NCBI GenBank assembly: GCA_016721765.1
Contig: JADKHO010000002.1
Coordinates: forward strand, 151,616 to 215,615
From: Bacteroidota bacterium
GTDB lineage: Bacteria; Bacteroidota; Bacteroidia; UBA4408
Direction of reading: 5' to 3'
DNA length: 64,000 nt
Positions 2,983 to 15,104 of this stretch are shown here, in pieces. Position 1 is the stretch's first letter; the number at the start of each line of letters is the position of its first letter. Under the pieces are notes generated by a model. It was given only the letters and a program-made list of their open reading frames with translations. It had not been told where the DNA came from and made no database searches. The position numbers and the translations under genes were made by a program.

Positions 2983-3426
2983 ATGAAAAATCTTATTTAT
3001 TGCTTTCTCTTTTCAATTACCCTGTGCAGCTCTTGTATTGTTCAATCGCCCAAGTATACCTCCCTCGACAAAGTGATGGAGCTTCAACTAGGTATGTCGA
3101 AAGACGAAGTTGAAAAAACTTTAGGATTGCAACCTTATGACTTAAAATCAGTCTCCGATACAGCTACTGTTTTCATTTATGTTTACCGTGTCACGGATCG
3201 TAAAACACTTTCAATAGATACCCAACCGGTGAATGGCCGTTCCGCATTGGGAAAATATATACAACTGGCTGTATCTTATTCAAAAGAGAATAAAGTAATC
3301 CACGTTGAATCATGCACGCTGTGTCCGGATAATTTATCCAATACAAAAAAATTAGACGTTCAAAAATTGATTGTTTTCTTAACAATCACCCTTCCTGTAA
3401 TTTTAGTTTTTATTGGTTTAAATTGA
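2983..3426 (+). CDS. lipoprotein with BamE/SmpA-OmlA-like segment and C-terminal TM helix
   Basis: 147-aa ORF. Signal peptide ending LCSSC (lipobox-like). LGMSKDEVEKTLGLQPYD resembles the SmpA/OmlA motif. Hydrophobic C-terminus LIVFLTITLPVILVFIGL. Confidence 0.55.
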   Translation: MKNLIYCFLFSITLCSSCIVQSPKYTSLDKVMELQLGMSKDEVEKTLGLQPYDLKSVSDTATVFIYVYRVTDRKTLSIDTQPVNGRSALGKYIQLAVSYSKENKVIHVESCTLCPDNLSNTKKLDVQKLIVFLTITLPVILVFIGLN

Positions 3427-3609: not shown

Positions 3610-4038
3610 ATGAAAAAAGTAACACTAATTGTAATGCTTGCCTTAGCAAGTGGATTAATGAATGCAAATGCACAAACACCTCAATTTTTAGTAAGCGATA
3701 AATGGGAGTGGTATAAAATTGCTGATAAAGTAGTTGGCGAAAATAAAAACCGTGACGAAATAATTGTTTCGGGCATCGAGCGATTTACAGCCATTAAAGT
3801 GGTGGTTAAGGAAGCAGAAATTAACATGTACGATTTAGAAGTTTCTTTTGCTGGCGGCAACGGACAAGTAATTGATATTAGCAGCGAAATGAAAGCAGGA
3901 ACCGAAAGTAAAGTGTATGGATTAGATAGCAGTAAAACTGACTTAACTAAGCTAACCTTTGCCTATGAAACGCTTAGCCCATTAGCAGATGAAAAAACTC
4001 AAATCGAAATTTGGGGACTTAGAACAATAAATGACTAA
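3610..4038 (+). CDS. secreted single-domain DUF2541-like protein (paralog of 2005..2811)
   Basis: 142-aa ORF. Signal peptide MKKVTLIVMLALASGLMNANAQ. Same domain pattern as 2005..2811: WYKI..NRDEI..GIERFTAIK..VSFAGG..AGTESK..LTKLTFAYET..IEIWG. Confidence 0.7.
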   Translation: MKKVTLIVMLALASGLMNANAQTPQFLVSDKWEWYKIADKVVGENKNRDEIIVSGIERFTAIKVVVKEAEINMYDLEVSFAGGNGQVIDISSEMKAGTESKVYGLDSSKTDLTKLTFAYETLSPLADEKTQIEIWGLRTIND

Positions 4039-10864: not shown

Positions 10865-12424
10865 ATGAAATATTGCTACTTAATTATCCAGCTTTTTCTC
10901 AGTATTGGAATTGCCTCTAATGTTCAGGCCAAAAAAAACAGCTCAGGTGTTGTTCCGGCTATCAGTATTGTAAGCAACGATGGTACCTACACGGAAGCTG
11001 TTGGTGGCCTATGTTTTAGTGTAAGCATTACAAATCCATTACCCGATACTACTTTTGTAGATGTGCAAATTGTGGCAAGTACCACCGGAACGCTCGGTAC
11101 CGATTTTACCATTGCACCTACTCGAATTAAGTTTTTACCCAATTTTGCCGGTAATGAATCTGTTTGTGTGAGCATATTCGAAGACCTCTTAGCCGAGCCA
11201 ATTGAGACCTACAGTTTTATGCTTGCAAACCCGAGTAACAATGCAACTCTAGGTGATTCTCTAATTAATTTTACCATTTATGACAACGACTCCATAACCA
11301 CTTCCAATCCTTGTTCCGACATATTTTTTTCAGAATTTGTGCATAGTTTTTCAGCTGGTGATAGAGCATTCGAATTGTATAATCCAACCGGCCAGGTGGT
11401 TGATTTATCAAATTATTCCATAAAAATTTATTTTGCCGGTAACACCGTTGCCGGAACCGATGTGCCATTATCCGGTTTTATAAATCATGGAGATACCTAT
11501 GTAATCAGTTATTCCGGCTCCGATTCAGCAGTAAAGGCAATTTCAGATTTGGTAAACGGACAGTTCTTCTTTAATGGAAACAGCGCAATTGGCTTATACC
11601 ACAATGCTACTTTAGTCGATTGCTTTGGCACAATAGGAGTGAACCCCGGCTTTGGCTGGCCGGTTTACAATGCAAATTCAACTTCGGCAACACTGGTGCG
11701 AAAACAAAATATCAAACAAGGTGAGTCAAACTGGAACAATTCAAATGGTCAATGGGATATATTTCCGCAAGCTGATTATTCTCACTTGGGTTCACACACC
11801 ATCAACGGCTGTGGTTTTATTGTGCCACCGACGGTCACCATGTTTACATCCGATGCTTCCTTTAATGAAGCAGTTGGCGGCTTAAGCATTAGTGTAAAGA
11901 TCTTTAATCCCCTTGCAGTTGCCACTACGGTGGATGTAGTTTTAGGTAATTTAACCACGGCTACACTCAACAGCGATTTTACTTTTACCCCATCACAGTT
12001 AACCTTCCCGGCAAATTCCACAGTTCCGCAATCCATTAGCATTTCTATTGTGGATGATTTAACAATTGAGCCGGATGAAATACTTGAACTCCGTCTTCAA
12101 AATGTAAGTGGTTCCGCTACAATATTAGATTCCAGTTGGGTGCTTACCATTCAAAACGACGATTTTACAGGAATCAGTGAAATCAAAACTTCCGCAACCC
12201 ACAACCTTCAACCAAATCCCGTAAAAGATATTTTAAAATTTACATCCAACAATAAAATTGATAGCTACCAAATTACAAATTTCCTTGGCCAAGTATATAA
12301 AGCTGAAACCAACATTAATTCATCACAACTCAATTTAAATTTACAAGATCTAAAACCGGGAATGTATTTTATTGTAGTAAAGGAGGGAACTAATAATTTC
12401 TGCAAACGATTTATCAAAGACTAG
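10865..12424 (+). CDS. T9SS-secreted protein: Calx-beta - lamin-tail domain (LTD) - Calx-beta - type-A C-terminal sorting domain
   Basis: 519-aa ORF with signal peptide. Two GTLGTDFT/ATLNSDFTF Calx-beta-like modules flank an LTD-like segment (FSEF...AFELYNPTG..VDLSNYSI). C-terminus is PNPVKD...LKPGMYFIVV...KRFIKD. Confidence 0.8.
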   Translation: MKYCYLIIQLFLSIGIASNVQAKKNSSGVVPAISIVSNDGTYTEAVGGLCFSVSITNPLPDTTFVDVQIVASTTGTLGTDFTIAPTRIKFLPNFAGNESVCVSIFEDLLAEPIETYSFMLANPSNNATLGDSLINFTIYDNDSITTSNPCSDIFFSEFVHSFSAGDRAFELYNPTGQVVDLSNYSIKIYFAGNTVAGTDVPLSGFINHGDTYVISYSGSDSAVKAISDLVNGQFFFNGNSAIGLYHNATLVDCFGTIGVNPGFGWPVYNANSTSATLVRKQNIKQGESNWNNSNGQWDIFPQADYSHLGSHTINGCGFIVPPTVTMFTSDASFNEAVGGLSISVKIFNPLAVATTVDVVLGNLTTATLNSDFTFTPSQLTFPANSTVPQSISISIVDDLTIEPDEILELRLQNVSGSATILDSSWVLTIQNDDFTGISEIKTSATHNLQPNPVKDILKFTSNNKIDSYQITNFLGQVYKAETNINSSQLNLNLQDLKPGMYFIVVKEGTNNFCKRFIKD

Positions 12425-12540
12425 CTTGAAAGAAAAATTTCATTTGCTTATCCTTAGTTTTACTTTGCTTGAGATATAAATATCACAACCAGTATTAATG
12501 ATGAATTGCCATCAATAAAGGCTTATTTAGTTTACTGAAA

Positions 12541-12722
12541 GGATCGGCCTATGAGAAATTGGCGTTAAGAAATTTGAATTCATTATTAAGCGTGGGCCTG
12601 TGTAAGCAATCCTCGAGCGAGAAAACATTTTTTTACTTAGCACTGACCACTTTCGAGCGCTTGGGTTGCGCGGCAATAATGAATTCAAATTTTAGCCAAT
12701 TTATCATCAGCCTTGATTTTTT
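12541..12722 (+). ncRNA. candidate structured RNA, array unit 1 (subtype A)
   Basis: Core runs GGATCGGCC...CAGCCTTGATTTTTT. Long closing helix, inner helix GCAATCC/GGGTTGC, apical hairpin, 3' U-run. Confidence 0.4.
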
Positions 12723-12840
12723 GCTTACTTTTTGATCAAGAAAAAAGTATGAAAATGACCATTGATAGTAGTATTCACCACCCTATAGAATCTATTCAAC
12801 TAAAAGCACGAAATCCCCAAATCACAATCATGAACGAAAA

Positions 12841-13024
12841 GGATCGGCCTATGAGAAATTGGCGTTAAGAAATTTGAATTCATTTTTATGCGCAGGCCTG
12901 TGTAAGCAATCCACGAGCGAGAAATGAAAGTATTTTCATTTAACAGAATATTGTCGAGCGGCTTGGGTTGCGTGTAAAAATGAATTCGAATTTTAGCCAA
13001 TTTATCATCAGCCTTGATTTTTTT
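12841..13024 (+). ncRNA. candidate structured RNA, array unit 2 (subtype B)
   Basis: Same architecture as unit 1. The CATTTTTA/TAAAAATG helix segment is compensatory relative to subtype A. Confidence 0.4.
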
Positions 13025-13131
13025 CTTACTTTTTGATCAAGCAAAAAAGTAAGAAAACATGCATGAAAACTCGCAAATAATAATGATATACAAAAAACGA
13101 AACCTAAAAAAACATCAATAAAATCCGAAAA

Positions 13132-13313
13132 AGACCGGCCTATGAGAAATTGGCGTTAAGAAATTTGAATTCATTATTAAGCGCGGGCCTGTGTAAGCAA
13201 TCCTCGAGCGAGAAAACAATTTTTTACTTAGCACTGACCACTTTCGAGCGCTTGGGTTGCGCGGCAATAATGAATTCAAATTTTAGCCAATTTATCATCA
13301 GCCTTGATTTTTT
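13132..13313 (+). ncRNA. candidate structured RNA, array unit 3 (subtype A)
   Basis: Near-identical to unit 1. Confidence 0.4.
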
Positions 13314-13431
13314 GCATACTTTTTTATCAAGAAAAAAGTATGAAAATGACCATTGATAGTAGTATTCACCTCCCGATAAAACCTAAGCAACAAAAAGAAC
13401 GAAATCCTAAAATCACAATCAAAACCGAAAA

Positions 13432-13615
13432 GGATCGGCCTATGAGAAATTGGCGTTAAAAAATTTGAATTCATTTTTAAGCGTTGGCCTCGTGTAAGCA
13501 ACCCTCGAGCGAGAAATGAAAGTATTTTCATTTAACAGAATATTGTCGAGCGGCTTGGGTTGCGTGTAAAAATGAATTCGAATTTTAGCCAATTTATCAT
13601 CAGCCTTGATTTTTT
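13432..13615 (+). ncRNA. candidate structured RNA, array unit 4 (subtype B)
   Basis: Near-identical to unit 2. The inner helix reads GCAACCC/GGGTTGC. Confidence 0.4.
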
Positions 13616-13722
13616 GCTTACTTTTTGATCAAGCAAAAAGTAAGAAAACATGCATGAAAACTCGCAAATAATAATGAGATACAAAAAACGAAACCTAAAA
13701 AAACATCAATAAAATCCGAAAA

Positions 13723-13904
13723 AGACCGGCCTATGAGAAATTGACGTTAAGAAATTTGAATTCATTTTTAAGCGCGGGCCTTGTGTAAGCAACCCTCGAG
13801 CGAGAAAAATCAATATTTTCCTTTTACTGAATTTATCGAGCGCTTGGGTTGCGTGTAAAAATGAATTCGAATTTTAGCCAATTTATCATCAGCCTTGATT
13901 TTTT
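13723..13904 (+). ncRNA. candidate structured RNA, array unit 5 (variant apical hairpin)
   Basis: Same helices. The apical region has a different sequence (GAAAA..TTTTC). One mismatch in the closing helix (TTGAC). Confidence 0.35.
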
Positions 13905-14022
13905 GCATACTTTTTGATCAAGAAAAAAGTATGAGAATGACTATTGCTAGTAGTGTTCACCTCCCGATAAAACCTAAGCAACAAAAAGCACGAAATCCTA
14001 AAATCATAATCATAAACGAAAA

Positions 14023-14206
14023 GGACCGGCCTATGAGAAATTGGCGTTAAGAAATTTGAATTCATTTTTATGCGCAGGCCTGTGTAAGCAATCCACGAGC
14101 GAGAAATGAAAATATTTTCTTTCAACAGAATATTATCGAGCGGCTTGGGTTGCGCGGCAAAAATTAATTTAAATTTTAGCCAATTTATCATCAGCCTTGA
14201 TTTTTT
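14023..14206 (+). ncRNA. candidate structured RNA, array unit 6 (subtype B, partly decayed 3' arm)
   Basis: The 3' arm reads AAAAATTAATTTAAATTTTAGCC, with two mismatches against the 5' arm. Confidence 0.3.
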
Positions 14207-14313
14207 GCTTACTTTTTGATCAAGCAAAAAGTAAGAAAACATGCATGAAAACTCGCAAATAATAATAAGATACAAAAAACGAAACCCTAAAAAACATCAT
14301 TAAAAACCGAAAA

Positions 14314-14550
14314 GGACCGGCCTATGAGAAATTAGCGTTAAGAAATTTGAATTCATTTTTAAGCGTAGGCCCTGTGTAAGCAACCCTCGAGCGAGAAACA
14401 AAAATATTCTCCAATTACGGAACAAAATCGAGCGCTTGGGTTGCGTGGCAATTAAGGCAAAGCCGAATCACGAATACCTTAAAAAATTAACACAATATGA
14501 GTAAAAATGAATTAAAATTTTAGCCAATTGCTCATCAGCCTTGATTTTTT
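14314..14550 (+). ncRNA. candidate structured RNA, array unit 7 (with ~53-nt hairpin insertion)
   Basis: Same ends as the other units. The insertion TTAAGGCAAAGCCGAATCACGAATACCTTAA... lies between the inner helix and the 3' arm. Confidence 0.3.
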
Positions 14551-14667
14551 GCTTACTTTTTGATCAAGCAAAAAGTAAGAAAACACCTTACAAGTAATGA
14601 TTTTAATAGTTTTATAATTCAAATCTTATTGCAATTAACCAAAGTACTTTTCTACACTTATCCACAT

Positions 14668-14707
14668 AAAAAAAGCAGTTGCATATTAGGCAACTGCTTT
14701 TTTTTAT
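14668..14707. terminator. bidirectional rho-independent terminator
   Basis: Stem AGCAGTTGC/GCAACTGCT flanked by an A-run upstream and a T-run downstream. Lies between the array and the convergent DUF1987 gene. Confidence 0.7.
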
Positions 14708-14720
14708 ACTATTTCAAAGC

Positions 14721-15104
14721 TTAAGCTTCGCTCAATACCATTTTAAAAGGAATGTTAATAATGGCTTGATAATCTTCGCCTGCTTCTAACATATCCTCAT
14801 CATCCTCTTCATAATGCCAGTTAATAATAACCTCACTACTTCCGCCTTTGTGAATACTCTCAAGTTTTTTAAATACGTCCAAAATACACTTCGAAGAACT
14901 GGTATTAAAGTACTCCAAATGAATATTCACATTTGTATTCTTTTGTGGCTTGCCCGAGTATTTATCCAACCAGTCTACAAGCGGTTTGTAAAACTCAATC
15001 GAGTTTTCAGGGATCGATCTCCCTTTAATTTCTAAATATCCTTTATCCCAATCAAATTTAATAGTAGGCGTTTTGGGTGAACCTTCAATTAGCAGTGTTT
15101 CCAT
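14721..15104 (-). CDS. DUF1987 / SiaC-family partner-switch phosphoprotein
   Basis: 127-aa ORF. IEGSPKTPTIKFDWDKGYLEIKGRSIPENSIEFYKPLVDWL is the typical DUF1987 N-terminus. Confidence 0.75.
   Translation of the reverse strand: METLLIEGSPKTPTIKFDWDKGYLEIKGRSIPENSIEFYKPLVDWLDKYSGKPQKNTNVNIHLEYFNTSSSKCILDVFKKLESIHKGGSSEVIINWHYEEDDEDMLEAGEDYQAIINIPFKMVLSEA

Follow-up and report, generated by a model that had tools for sequence, protein, structure and literature searches.

The window, by which we mean the whole 64-kb stretch of DNA analysed, contains seven head-to-tail units of a non-coding element. The neighbours of this array encode a Calx-beta/LTD T9SS protein, SiaC-family and DUF6272 proteins and methyltransferases. 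In relatives of the Calx-beta/LTD protein (60-63% identity), a convergent glutamate dehydrogenase gene is found in place of the array. The features of the array are listed here (R1 is a covariance model described below).

12541..14579, plus strand: whole array, seven units, element of approximately 210 bp each
12541..12722, plus strand: unit 1 core (P1 through U-run); R1 match 12535-12766, 90.3 bits, E 1.8e-19; MFE -54.8 kcal/mol
12841..13024, plus strand: unit 2 core, landmark reference; R1 91.8 bits
13132..13313, plus strand: unit 3 core; R1 101.6 bits
13432..13615, plus strand: unit 4 core; R1 103.2 bits, E 1.9e-22
13723..13904, plus strand: unit 5 core; R1 88.1 bits
14023..14206, plus strand: unit 6 core; R1 95.7 bits; MFE z -2.45
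14314..14550, plus strand: unit 7 core, including a 53-nt insertion; R1 78.8 bits; MFE z -2.08
14448..14500, plus strand: 53-nt insertion of unit 7, TTAAGG..CCTTAA hairpin
12723-12751, 13024-13053, 13314-13342 and 13616-13644, plus strand: hairpin 2 of units 1-4
13905-13933, 14207-14235 and 14551-14579, plus strand: hairpin 2 of units 5-7
12752-12840, 13343-13431 and 13934-14022, plus strand: A-type spacers
13054-13131, 13645-13722 and 14236-14313, plus strand: B-type spacers
14668..14704, no strand assigned: canonical bidirectional intrinsic terminator, outside the repeat, between the array end and the convergent SiaC-family gene

The unit starts (12541, 12841, 13132, 13432, 13723, 14023 and 14314) are spaced alternately by 300 and 291 bp, and the array amounts to 3.5 copies of a 591-bp A/B dimer. 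The array was confirmed by TRF (period 291, 6.5 copies, score 2219) and by the 28-mer GCCAATTTATCATCAGCCTTGATTTTTT (7 occurrences at unit spacing vs. 0 expected), and the dimeric higher-order repeat proposed in the preliminary description by the identities between units. The cores of units 1 and 3 are 97% identical, those of units 2, 4 and 6 are 92-96% identical, and the unit 5 core is 88-90% identical to all other units except unit 7 (approximately 70%). A-type spacers (87 bp) are 84-92% alike among themselves and B-type spacers (76 bp) 92-99%, compared to approximately 60% between the two types; spacer conservation in the array equals core conservation. Homology links the last 40 nt or so of the A-type spacer with the B spacer and with the 5' leader of two relatives (L069 and L025). 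Units 6 and 7 harbour pair-breaking changes (several in P2 of unit 6), and the final unit on the contig of another strain, preceded by an A-type spacer, has no 53-nt insertion. The motif GGAYCGGCC, previously given for the unit starts, was correct in position but not in sequence for units 3 and 5, whose first letters are AGACCGGCC. Likewise, GGCCTGTGTAAGCAA had been described as invariant and as a possible seed or recognition loop. It is exact in 4 of the 7 units, with a 1-nt insertion in units 4, 5 and 7, and GTGTAAGCAA alone is invariant. Moreover, GGCCTGTGTAAGCAA is not conserved in relatives of the Ignavibacteria type, whose interior differs from that of the window units, and the claim is not supported.

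Every unit folds as a long irregular hairpin (MFE -49.5 to -64.4 kcal/mol, z -2.1 to -6.4), in agreement with the long closing helix recognised earlier. For single sequences of the array, the minus strand folds approximately equally well. The landmarks of the fold in unit 2 are the following.

12846-12864 (5' strand) and 12996-13013 (3' strand), plus strand: P1
12865-12869, plus strand: internal loop UUAAG
12870-12894 with 12972-12993, plus strand: P2
12895-12905, plus strand: loop GGCCTGTGTAA
12906-12912 with 12965-12971, plus strand: P3
12925-12953, plus strand: apical variable hairpin
13014-13024, plus strand: TTGAT and T-run

The closing helix P1 is conserved in sequence (GGCCUAUGA(A/G)AA... 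/ ...UCAUCAGCC). It is formed by GGCCTATGAAAAT and ATTTTCATCAGCC, which are terminal inverted repeats and the best-conserved parts of the element, while the interior is the least conserved. Directly 3' of the P1 helix, all seven units have a terminator-like TTGATTTTTT(T). The parts conserved throughout the family are the closing helix, the UUGAU-U6 tail and the downstream hairpin (hairpin 2).

The array by itself informs little on selection, with spacers as conserved as cores and pair-breaking changes in units 6 and 7. The pairing-preserving differences between its units had been read as covariation, but both sides changed in only 3 of 64 predicted pairs, so the array alone is insufficient for this purpose. 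The real evidence comes from approximately 25 relatives found by a metagenome scan, at least some of them from Ignavibacteria; the known copies number approximately 30 in total, all from that one 19-mer-seeded scan plus flanks. Covariance model R1 was built from 11 metagenomic relatives, with the window sequences left out. Its only matches in the 64-kb window were the seven units, each on the plus strand (78.8-103.2 bits, E 9e-17 to 2e-22); array units and metagenomic copies belong to one family. In a structure-blind MAFFT alignment of the relatives (A4), 94.1% of the cells pair and both-side changes occur in 25 of 49 pairs (5-12 in slid controls). The covariation score of A4 is 0.438, compared to 0.104 or less in slid controls, and none of 500 shuffles reached it. 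When 27 copies were aligned to the model, 93.7% of the cells paired and 38 of the 49 pairs were changed on both sides. Three copies on one 16-kb contig (L057) show compensatory differences in P2, P3 and P4. Selection clearly acts on the fold. Across classes of copies, the unpaired sequences of the internal loops are conserved, and diverged paralogue subtypes are common to different contigs.

There is a plus-strand bias in the family. The helices include 31 G-U cells vs. 8 A-C cells, the forward-strand MFE is lower in 11 of 11 relatives, and the consensus energy is lower on the forward than on the reverse strand, both in the relatives (-42.6 vs. -38.6) and in the window units (-57.7 vs. -47.0). 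Subtype-B units require two G-U pairs in P2. An A-tract precedes P1 (a short U-tract on the minus strand) and the U-run follows on the plus strand; the U-run is conserved on this strand only. The G-U excess, the fold energies and the UUGAU-U6 tail suggest that the plus strand is the likelier functional strand, as supposed at the outset. This evidence for a strand, and for RNA, is soft, as the G-U cells and energies were counted on structures inferred with RNA rules; single-stranded DNA hairpins also tolerate G-T pairs.

UUGAU-U6/7 follows P1 in every copy that has no insertion there, with variants in L068b, L087 and L069b. In L057b and L057c an insertion takes the place of the U-run while the rod stays intact, indicating that the putative terminator is dispensable. 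The second hairpin of the preliminary description is present, and its loop (AUCAAG) is complementary to the CUUGAU after P1. By inspection, linker and loop covary (CUUGAU/AUCAAG becomes GCGAU/AUCGC in L068b and CGAU/AUCGAU in L087), and the stem covaries in the alignment of relatives (helix 6). Homology between copies in different contexts runs from approximately 10 nt before P1 to just after hairpin 2; this boundary and the linker/loop covariation indicate that hairpin 2 is part of the element. An independent REP-like repeat was rejected, as there is a single solo hairpin 2 in the 757 kb surveyed. An outward TAnnTTTG promoter in hairpin 2 is disfavoured, being perfect only in copies with four Ts, and the outer stem covaries.

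Copies of the element are scattered, multi-copy and diverged, in either orientation relative to genes. There are several diverged copies per contig, almost always co-oriented (three on L057, three on the contig behind L058 and L068, two on L050); those of the window are confined to the array. Some copies flank single genes (L068, L069 and L057), some lie in or beside defence and toxin-antitoxin genes, and contigs often break at the element. Related genomes differ in its presence: eight syntenic Ignavibacteria loci have no copy at the L041 site, the L087 contig has a copy at a neighbouring site where five aligned relatives have none, and only 1 copy was present in 153 kb of related Ignavibacteria. 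Truncated or internally deleted copies exist (L041b, L050a/b), the interior is replaceable (L050a/b), and other small hairpin repeats are inserted into some copies, at one shared spot. No target-site duplication was seen, that is, no direct repeat flanked the conserved unit in any aligned copy set. No transposase was found with the element, nor any gene-sized element with the same ends (the distance between 5'- and 3'-end motifs was always 116-170 bp in approximately 0.76 Mb surveyed). In the Ignavibacteria loci compared, no clean empty-versus-filled junction could be defined because the intergenic regions are too variable, and fast turnover of intergenic DNA could, as an alternative to mobility, produce the patchy distribution. 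Searches of viral contigs with five patterns, and of plasmid and phage records, gave no real copies. The four matches to AGCAAYCCNCGAGCGAGAAA in the genome collection were attributed to chance: each stood alone in a candidate-phyla-radiation MAG, similarity did not extend beyond the match, and three fell within long open reading frames.

Rfam 15 gave no match in the 64-kb window at gathering thresholds, consistent with the earlier failure to assign the element to any RNA family. At E<=10 the array had chance-level hairpin matches only, mostly to miRNA precursors, and in the loci of six relatives nothing overlapped the element. Nothing relevant was found in the literature on an RNA or MITE of such a kind in Bacteroidota or Ignavibacteria. 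The family is uncatalogued and comprises structured intergenic elements of approximately 190-240 bp in Ignavibacteria and other Bacteroidota. Several identities were considered and rejected: a hammerhead core (CUGAUGA occurs on the minus strand, with no GAAA and no three-way junction after it), a K-turn or C/D box (GA is missing from the partner strand), a retron (no reverse transcriptase nearby), a type III toxin-antitoxin locus (no adjacent toxin gene) and a type I toxin-antitoxin repeat of the Ldr/Ibs type (no conserved small hydrophobic ORF). As an RNA, the element would resemble 6S RNA and Y RNA in being mostly double-stranded, approximately 180 nt long, with internal loops, a conserved closing stem, a variable interior and a U-run at the end. 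Unlike these, it is multi-copy, matches none of the 6S, 6S-Flavo and Y RNA models, has neither Rsr nor any other conserved neighbour and is absent from the syntenic loci of close relatives, and 6S RNA was also rejected.

Our preferred interpretation, tentative at a probability of approximately 0.45, is that the units belong to a new, non-autonomous family whose members are prone to gain and loss and specify a rod-like non-coding RNA, and that unequal recombination amplified them in this genome. The RNA would be read from the plus strand, with helices P1-P4 and conserved internal loops, several of them GA-rich; binding of a protein to these loops is speculative. P1, UUGAU and the run of six or seven U resemble an intrinsic terminator, which would end a transcript of approximately 170-190 nt. 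The hairpin 2 loop (AUCAAG) can pair with UUGAU; hairpin 2 may modulate termination or read-through, or serve at the DNA level. The family behaves as an easily gained and lost element, probably mobile, with copies in variable intergenic regions. In the window, two neighbouring copies (A and B) would have been amplified 3.5 times, and the distal units 6 and 7 appear to be already decaying.

Paralogous sRNAs and an amplified MITE-like palindrome, the alternatives named at the outset, are still the two main readings. Palindromic MITE-like repeats that fold as RNA are known from enterobacteria (ERIC/IRU), Neisseria (Correia/NEMIS) and pneumococci (BOX/RUP); these carry well-defined terminal inverted repeats with target-site duplications, and near-identical copies are numerous within a genus. 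Like them, the element is a non-coding imperfect intergenic palindrome (100-250 bp in those families) that occurs in multiple copies and both orientations, keeps its ends and has internally deleted forms; such repeats can act as terminators or processing sites. It differs in having no duplication, in its conserved unpaired loops and in spanning Ignavibacteria and a T9SS-bearing Bacteroidota lineage. A covariance-model search for dispersed copies had been suggested; in the window, model R1 returned the array units alone. The dispersed copies expected of a plain MITE were found in other genomes but the target-site duplications were not, and since same-contig copies are also diverged with compensatory changes, the pattern is not that of a plain MITE.

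It is somewhat unlikely that the array consists of true sRNA genes, encoding paralogous trans-acting regulators or protein-binding RNAs, with the scattered copies as ordinary paralogues. Each unit would end at P1 and the U-run, and amplification would serve dosage or diversification. The deep covariation, the unpaired internal loops conserved across classes, the shared paralogue subtypes, the favoured plus strand, the terminator-like tail and the lack of an ORF all agree with such genes. Many copies are oriented away from, or antisense to, the adjacent genes and would need a promoter of their own. However, no Bacteroidetes-type TAnnTTTG box stands upstream of the copies at a constant distance, the array has no more sigma-70-like matches than chance would give (8 vs. 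8.4 expected), and the spacers give no visible sign that each unit is transcribed independently. Tandem sRNA arrays are known, such as NsiR1 in heterocystous cyanobacteria and the tandem PrrF, LhrC and RsmX paralogues, with units of 60-150 nt, a recognisable promoter of their own, conserved neighbours and documented transcripts. The window array shares with them head-to-tail non-coding units, a terminator-like hairpin with U-run and paralogue subtypes within the array, but its rod would measure approximately 180 nt, promoters are not apparent, and in other genomes the family has a scattered, patchy distribution. The absence of copies from the syntenic sites of close relatives, the single copy in 153 kb of related Ignavibacteria, the truncated or deleted copies and the small elements inserted into others all argue against ordinary sRNA genes, as does an interior, where a seed would lie, less conserved than the ends.

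A DNA-level hairpin repeat (single-stranded DNA, REPIN or IS200/IS605-derived type) or a recombination site, with RNA incidental, is unlikely. The recombinase or transposase would be encoded elsewhere, and the array would have arisen by replication slippage or recombination between hairpins. Several observations point this way: the conserved ends form an imperfect inverted repeat around a variable, replaceable interior, the TTGAT pentanucleotide lies beside a hairpin with a covarying complement, same-contig copies are almost always co-oriented, no promoter was found, and other hairpin repeats are inserted at the same spot. Hairpin 2 is conserved beyond the putative terminator, and if an RNA ends at the U-run, its conservation and covariation lack an explanation, which counts against an RNA. 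TTGAT is also the insertion target of ISDra2, which gives no more than a lead here. REP/REPIN and IS200/IS605-derived repeats likewise show a selected hairpin, strand asymmetry, no target-site duplication, a short conserved tag by the hairpin (here TTGAT) and hot spots of nested insertion. By contrast, the element is 5-10 times the size of REP hairpins (20-40 nt), REPINs measure approximately 100 nt and lack conserved internal loops, no RAYT, TnpA or TnpB was found near any copy, and hairpin 2 almost never occurs alone. A Pfam scan of approximately 40 neighbour proteins revealed no Y1/HUH transposase, RAYT, TnpB or integrase. Conserved unpaired loops deep in a 150-nt rod, and compensatory changes in four helices, exceed what end recognition needs, and the one-sided conservation of the U-run also argues against DNA-level action. 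Integron attC sites (e.g. Vibrio VCRs) similarly form arrays of imperfect palindromes that keep structure above sequence and sometimes flank single genes. However, attC was rejected: the helix base lacks paired R''/R' boxes (RYYYAAC / GTTRRRY) and reads GGC/GCC in P1, and a GTTAAGA in an unpaired internal loop near the 5' end has, by inspection, no partner box. Furthermore, no integron integrase was seen next to the array, the window spacers are 76-87 bp and the orientation to genes is inconsistent.

Rather improbable is a new RNA class or RNA-dependent mobile element in which the rod RNA, with its conserved GA-rich internal loops, serves as cofactor to a protein encoded elsewhere, for example a recombinase, a nuclease or a defence protein. 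The UUGAU/hairpin-2 module would then be a DNA or RNA site for the partner protein, and the array a multi-copy RNA store. This would join the conserved ends, the compensatory interior and the scattering through defence islands.

Very unlikely is an elaborate cis-acting terminator or insulator, or an mRNA-stabilising 3' element, stacked seven times between the convergent Calx-beta and SiaC-family genes. P1 with a plus-strand U-run and a preceding A-tract has the layout of a bidirectional terminator, and several copies follow shortly after a stop codon (23 nt for L087, 117 nt for the array). Nevertheless, orientation to the flanking genes is inconsistent, a canonical terminator already lies at 14668-14704, termination does not require a 150-nt rod with conserved internal loops, and related genomes have no element at the same sites. 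It is hardly credible that the units encode small proteins (repeated type I toxin-antitoxin loci, or a 39-aa ORF spanning the A-type spacers): an ATG within P1 is conserved and the 39-aa ORF is in frame in all three A-type spacers (12749-12868, 13340-13459 and 13931-14050), but no conserved ORF is common to the copies on either strand, as had been stated, the frames from this ATG run 5-43 codons across copies with hydrophilic products (5 codons in the window, with the earlier stops already described in units 5 and 7), the spacer ORF is missing from B-type spacers and all relatives and differs mostly by non-synonymous changes, and a protein search with the longest array ORF gave no match.

Structured non-coding elements of approximately 200 nt with strong covariation, conserved loops and no Rfam match are uncommon, and earlier ones proved to be riboswitches, ribozymes, guide RNAs or protein cofactors. 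The preferred reading, a gain- and loss-prone element specifying a rod-like RNA, concerns a multi-copy family that joins Ignavibacteria to another Bacteroidota lineage and is often located in variable regions or defence regions. Its two-part 3' module is unusual, consisting of a terminator-like tail and a hairpin whose loop would pair with that tail. If the family is a selfish repeat, it would be a rare bacterial case in which compensatory evolution keeps a large fold across deep divergence, and would also illustrate clearly how higher-order tandem amplification disrupts short-read assemblies. If it is a true RNA with a protein partner, it would represent a new ribonucleoprotein system in a phylum whose RNA biology is little explored.

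Seven head-to-tail units (u1-u7) occupy 12541-14579 on the forward strand, as 3.5 copies of an A/B dimer. The sequence of the 2.0-kb block that they form was as first described, and it lies between two genes:

10865-12424, + strand, Calx-beta/LTD/T9SS-tail gene, 5' flank of the block
14721-15104, - strand, SiaC-family (DUF1987) gene, convergent, 3' flank of the block

TRF reported a single array (period 291, 6.5 copies, score 2219), and seven occurrences of a 28-mer taken from the unit's 3' side were found at the 300/291 spacing (0 expected). Exact positions were fixed for the unit starts, the U-run ends and the second hairpins. The unit starts in the preliminary description were correct in position but not in sequence for units 3 and 5, which open with AGACCGGCC; GGCCTGTGTAAGCAA, thought to be invariant, is exact in only four units. 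Core and spacer identities demonstrated that the 300/291 alternation is a genuine dimeric higher-order repeat. Core identity is 97% between u1 and u3 and 92-96% among u2, u4 and u6; the unit 5 core is 88-90% identical to all other units except u7 (~70%). The A-type (87 bp) and B-type (76 bp) spacers are 84-99% alike within a type and ~60% between types. All seven listed same-species contigs reached via the SiaC-family protein break inside the array. In contig L005 (2554-2963, compared with 14294-14720 in the window), the last unit is preceded by an A-type spacer and does not have unit 7's 53-nt insertion, which shows that the array varies between strains. Changes that break pairs are building up in the distal units, 6 and 7, together with an insertion. 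The remainder of the window carries ordinary chromosomal genes.

Folding every core gave a single long, irregular hairpin (-49.5 to -64.4 kcal/mol, z -2.1 to -6.4), as had been read by eye. The reverse complement folds about equally well, as expected of any inverted repeat. Of the 64 predicted pairs, only 3 differ at both partners: one is the CATTATT/AATAATG switch, another the CTTAC/CATAC switch in hairpin 2 (the second hairpin, downstream of the U-run), and the third is a pair beside the hairpin-2 loop. Consequently the array by itself does not establish covariation. Rfam 15 at gathering thresholds gave no match in the whole window, so that the element still matches no known family there; at E<=10, the array region gave chance-level matches only, mostly to microRNA-precursor hairpins. 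The window has no tRNA or tmRNA genes.

Relatives were sought with probes from the unit. In species-representative genomes, the interior 20-mer AGCAAYCCNCGAGCGAGAAA gave four unrelated chance matches only (L001-L004; L-numbers denote fetched contigs or loci), all in Patescibacteria/candidate-phyla-radiation MAGs, in differing contexts (three within long ORFs) and with no wider similarity. Genomes with a Calx-beta protein 60-63% identical have another neighbour gene and no array. A metagenome scan with TCATCAGCCTTGATTTTTT returned 57 loci; approximately 17 resemble the unit over 60-80 nt around its 3' end, and several have a match to its 5' end as well, lying 100-150 nt upstream. The covariance model R1 was built from eleven of these metagenomic relatives alone and scored all seven window units at 79-103 bits on the plus strand, with no other match in the window. 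As the window units were left out of R1, this is an independent test of their membership. The covariance search suggested in the preliminary description did find copies outside the array, in other genomes: flanks of the fetched loci added two copies on L057 and a further one on each of L068, L069 and L054. Short-interior variants (L050), a truncated copy (L053) and a solo hairpin 2 (L041) were also recovered. The latter (L041 316-393, - strand) is preceded by TTGATTTTGATTTT, lies ~30-50 nt past a stop codon and is the only solo copy in ~757 kb surveyed.

Structure-blind MAFFT alignment of the eleven relatives gave an RNAalifold consensus of 49 pairs, with compensatory changes in 25 and 94.1% of cells pairing. 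The covariation score was 0.438, compared to at most 0.104 with partners slid by 1-3 columns, and was reached by none of 500 shuffles. When 27 copies were aligned to R1, 93.7% of cells paired and 38 of the 49 pairs changed on both sides. We conclude that the fold is genuine and maintained by selection, and that the window units do belong to a family spanning Ignavibacteria and a T9SS-bearing Bacteroidota lineage.

Similarity between copies in differing contexts starts ~10 nt before P1 and ends just past hairpin 2, and therefore hairpin 2 belongs to the element. Its parts, with P1-P4 as the helices of the rod, are all on the + strand:

leader, ~10 nt before P1, often T-rich, then A-rich
P1, GGC/GCC, usually a 2x2 loop CU/CA, then AUGA(A/G)AAUUnnCG and its complement
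internal loop UUAAG, between P1 and P2
GA-rich internal loop, between P2 and P3, AGCAGA... / UGUAAAGCGAA in the Ignavibacteria type
loop past P3, CUGUYUGAG / CGAGUU; in the window type CGAGCGAGAAA / UCGAGCG
P4, apical hairpin, variable
tail, YUUGAU and six or seven U, immediately 3' of P1
hairpin 2, 3' of the U-run, covarying outer stem, invariant UUUUG/CAAAA inner stem, loop UAUCAAGA

The hairpin-2 loop AUCAAG is complementary to CUUGAU after P1. Tail and loop change jointly in two related variants (GCGAU/AUCGC in one L068 copy, L068b, and CGAU/AUCGAU in L087), and the pairing retains a G-U in L065; this covariation, read by inspection, reflects one or two evolutionary events and is only suggestive. 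Window units and relatives have P1, the UUAAG loop, the P2 start and the entire 3' module in common; they differ in a much longer P2 in the window and a distinct P3/P4 region. L069 and L025 fall in between, having both the GGGUU(U)GC P3 strand and the longer 5' leader of the window units. Several family copies (L057 ~1433-1475 and ~3876-3958; L053 ~137-163; L050 ~3040-3085 and ~3655-3685; downstream of the L054 and L069 copies) contain a further small nested repeat that forms a GC-rich hairpin (..CCTGTCCCGC..GCGGGA..), always within the U-run or hairpin 2's 5' arm, as though this were an insertion target.

Neighbours are unrelated from copy to copy (PAS-domain kinase, YfiH, DinB, TruA, M16 peptidase, prfA, alcohol dehydrogenase, HigA, an MNT/HEPN pair), and copies are co-directional with flanking genes at some loci and antisense at others. 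On L057 (4116-12592), two co-oriented copies bracket a defence island encoding Vsr, a C5 DNA methylase, a HerA-like helicase, an unknown 599-aa protein, an AspBHI/Mrr-like restriction enzyme and HigA. Copies on one contig show compensatory differences, and their subtypes recur on other contigs. The L041 contig is assigned to Ignavibacteria by its prfA gene; eight syntenic loci from related Ignavibacteria (prfA 84-96% identical, 153 kb total) have no copy at its site. One of the eight, L087, carries a copy in a nearby intergenic region instead, and R1 gave no match in the five relatives aligned across that region. No target-site duplication, transposase or gene-sized element with matching ends was found among the copies and loci examined, and 2.9 million viral contigs plus phage and plasmid records held no copies. 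A ~310-aa protein adjoins the element on two unrelated contigs (L065 1996-2934, - strand; L049 637-1566, + strand); the two are 28% identical (E 2e-27), differ in orientation to the element and have no Pfam or PHROG match, nor, for the L065 protein, a PDB sequence match. Related Ignavibacteria intergenic regions carry other short hairpin repeats (e.g. GAGATTGCTTCGCCTTCGGCTCGCAAAA, GCGGCAATGCTTTAGCATTCGAAGCAATC) with fast turnover between genomes:

L081 ~11830-11880, hairpin repeat
L082 ~11990-12110, hairpin repeat
L081 and L082, M16b-hemerythrin spacers, hairpin repeats

The element resembles a functional structured RNA in its covariation throughout, conserved loops, strand bias and terminator-like tail, and a non-autonomous repeat in its conserved ends, replaceable interior, fragments, patchy presence, occurrence in variable regions and assembly breaks. 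Given this combination, we tentatively favour (probability about 0.45) a readily gained and lost element specifying a rod-like non-coding RNA, amplified into the array from an A/B pair. Unequal recombination may have expanded the pair, and units 6 and 7 would already be decaying.

The plus strand is favoured by an excess of G-U over A-C helix cells (31 vs 8), by a lower forward-strand MFE in 11/11 relatives, by consensus energy (forward vs reverse, -42.6 vs -38.6 in relatives and -57.7 vs -47.0 in window units), by a U-run on that strand only and by the two G-U pairs that subtype-B units do need in P2, as first proposed. The unpaired loops that are conserved along the rod argue for RNA, as does the terminator-like tail; both would suit an array of true small-RNA genes, which we regard as unlikely. 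Counting against RNA, the copies are not preceded at any fixed distance by a Bacteroidetes-type TAnnTTTG box (such a promoter is visible upstream of M16 genes in Ignavibacteria loci), sigma-70-like matches within the array are no commoner than chance predicts, and hairpin 2 is conserved though beyond the presumed 3' end. These points would fit a hairpin repeat or recombination site acting as DNA, and the strand evidence does not separate RNA from single-stranded DNA; given the loops and tail, we consider this reading improbable. A terminator or insulator would accord with the tail and is very improbable: a canonical bidirectional intrinsic terminator (14668-14704, 15-bp stem, A-/T-tracts) lies between the array end and the SiaC-family gene, indicating that the organism employs ordinary terminators.

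As first reported, no ORF is conserved: none is common to the family copies on either strand, and frames that begin at the conserved ATG within P1 are 5 to 43 codons long. TGG-to-stop changes are confined to units after B-type spacers. A 39-aa frame (MKMTIDSSIH...DRPMRNWR) is in-frame in all three A-type spacers (12749-12868, 13340-13459, 13931-14050) and terminates within the following unit's ATGAGAAATTGGCGTTAA; it is missing from B-type spacers and from relatives, and is probably non-coding, as differences among its three copies are mostly non-synonymous. Coding of a small protein is hardly credible.

The favoured RNA-specifying element would work most like either a tandem small-RNA array or, as in ERIC/Correia, an intergenic repeat that folds as RNA. 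Like a MITE it has inverted ends, but a target-site duplication and a cognate transposase were not found in the DNA surveyed; unlike integron attC sites, the array has neither R boxes nor an integrase. For an IS200/IS605-derived element or REPIN, there is no transposase among the neighbours, and the TTGAT-plus-hairpin likeness is only a lead. A type I toxin-antitoxin does not fit (no conserved ORF), nor does 6S RNA (no model match; the element is not universal). We file the array element as a new family within known kinds, noteworthy for its size, the depth of its covariation and its unusual 3' module.
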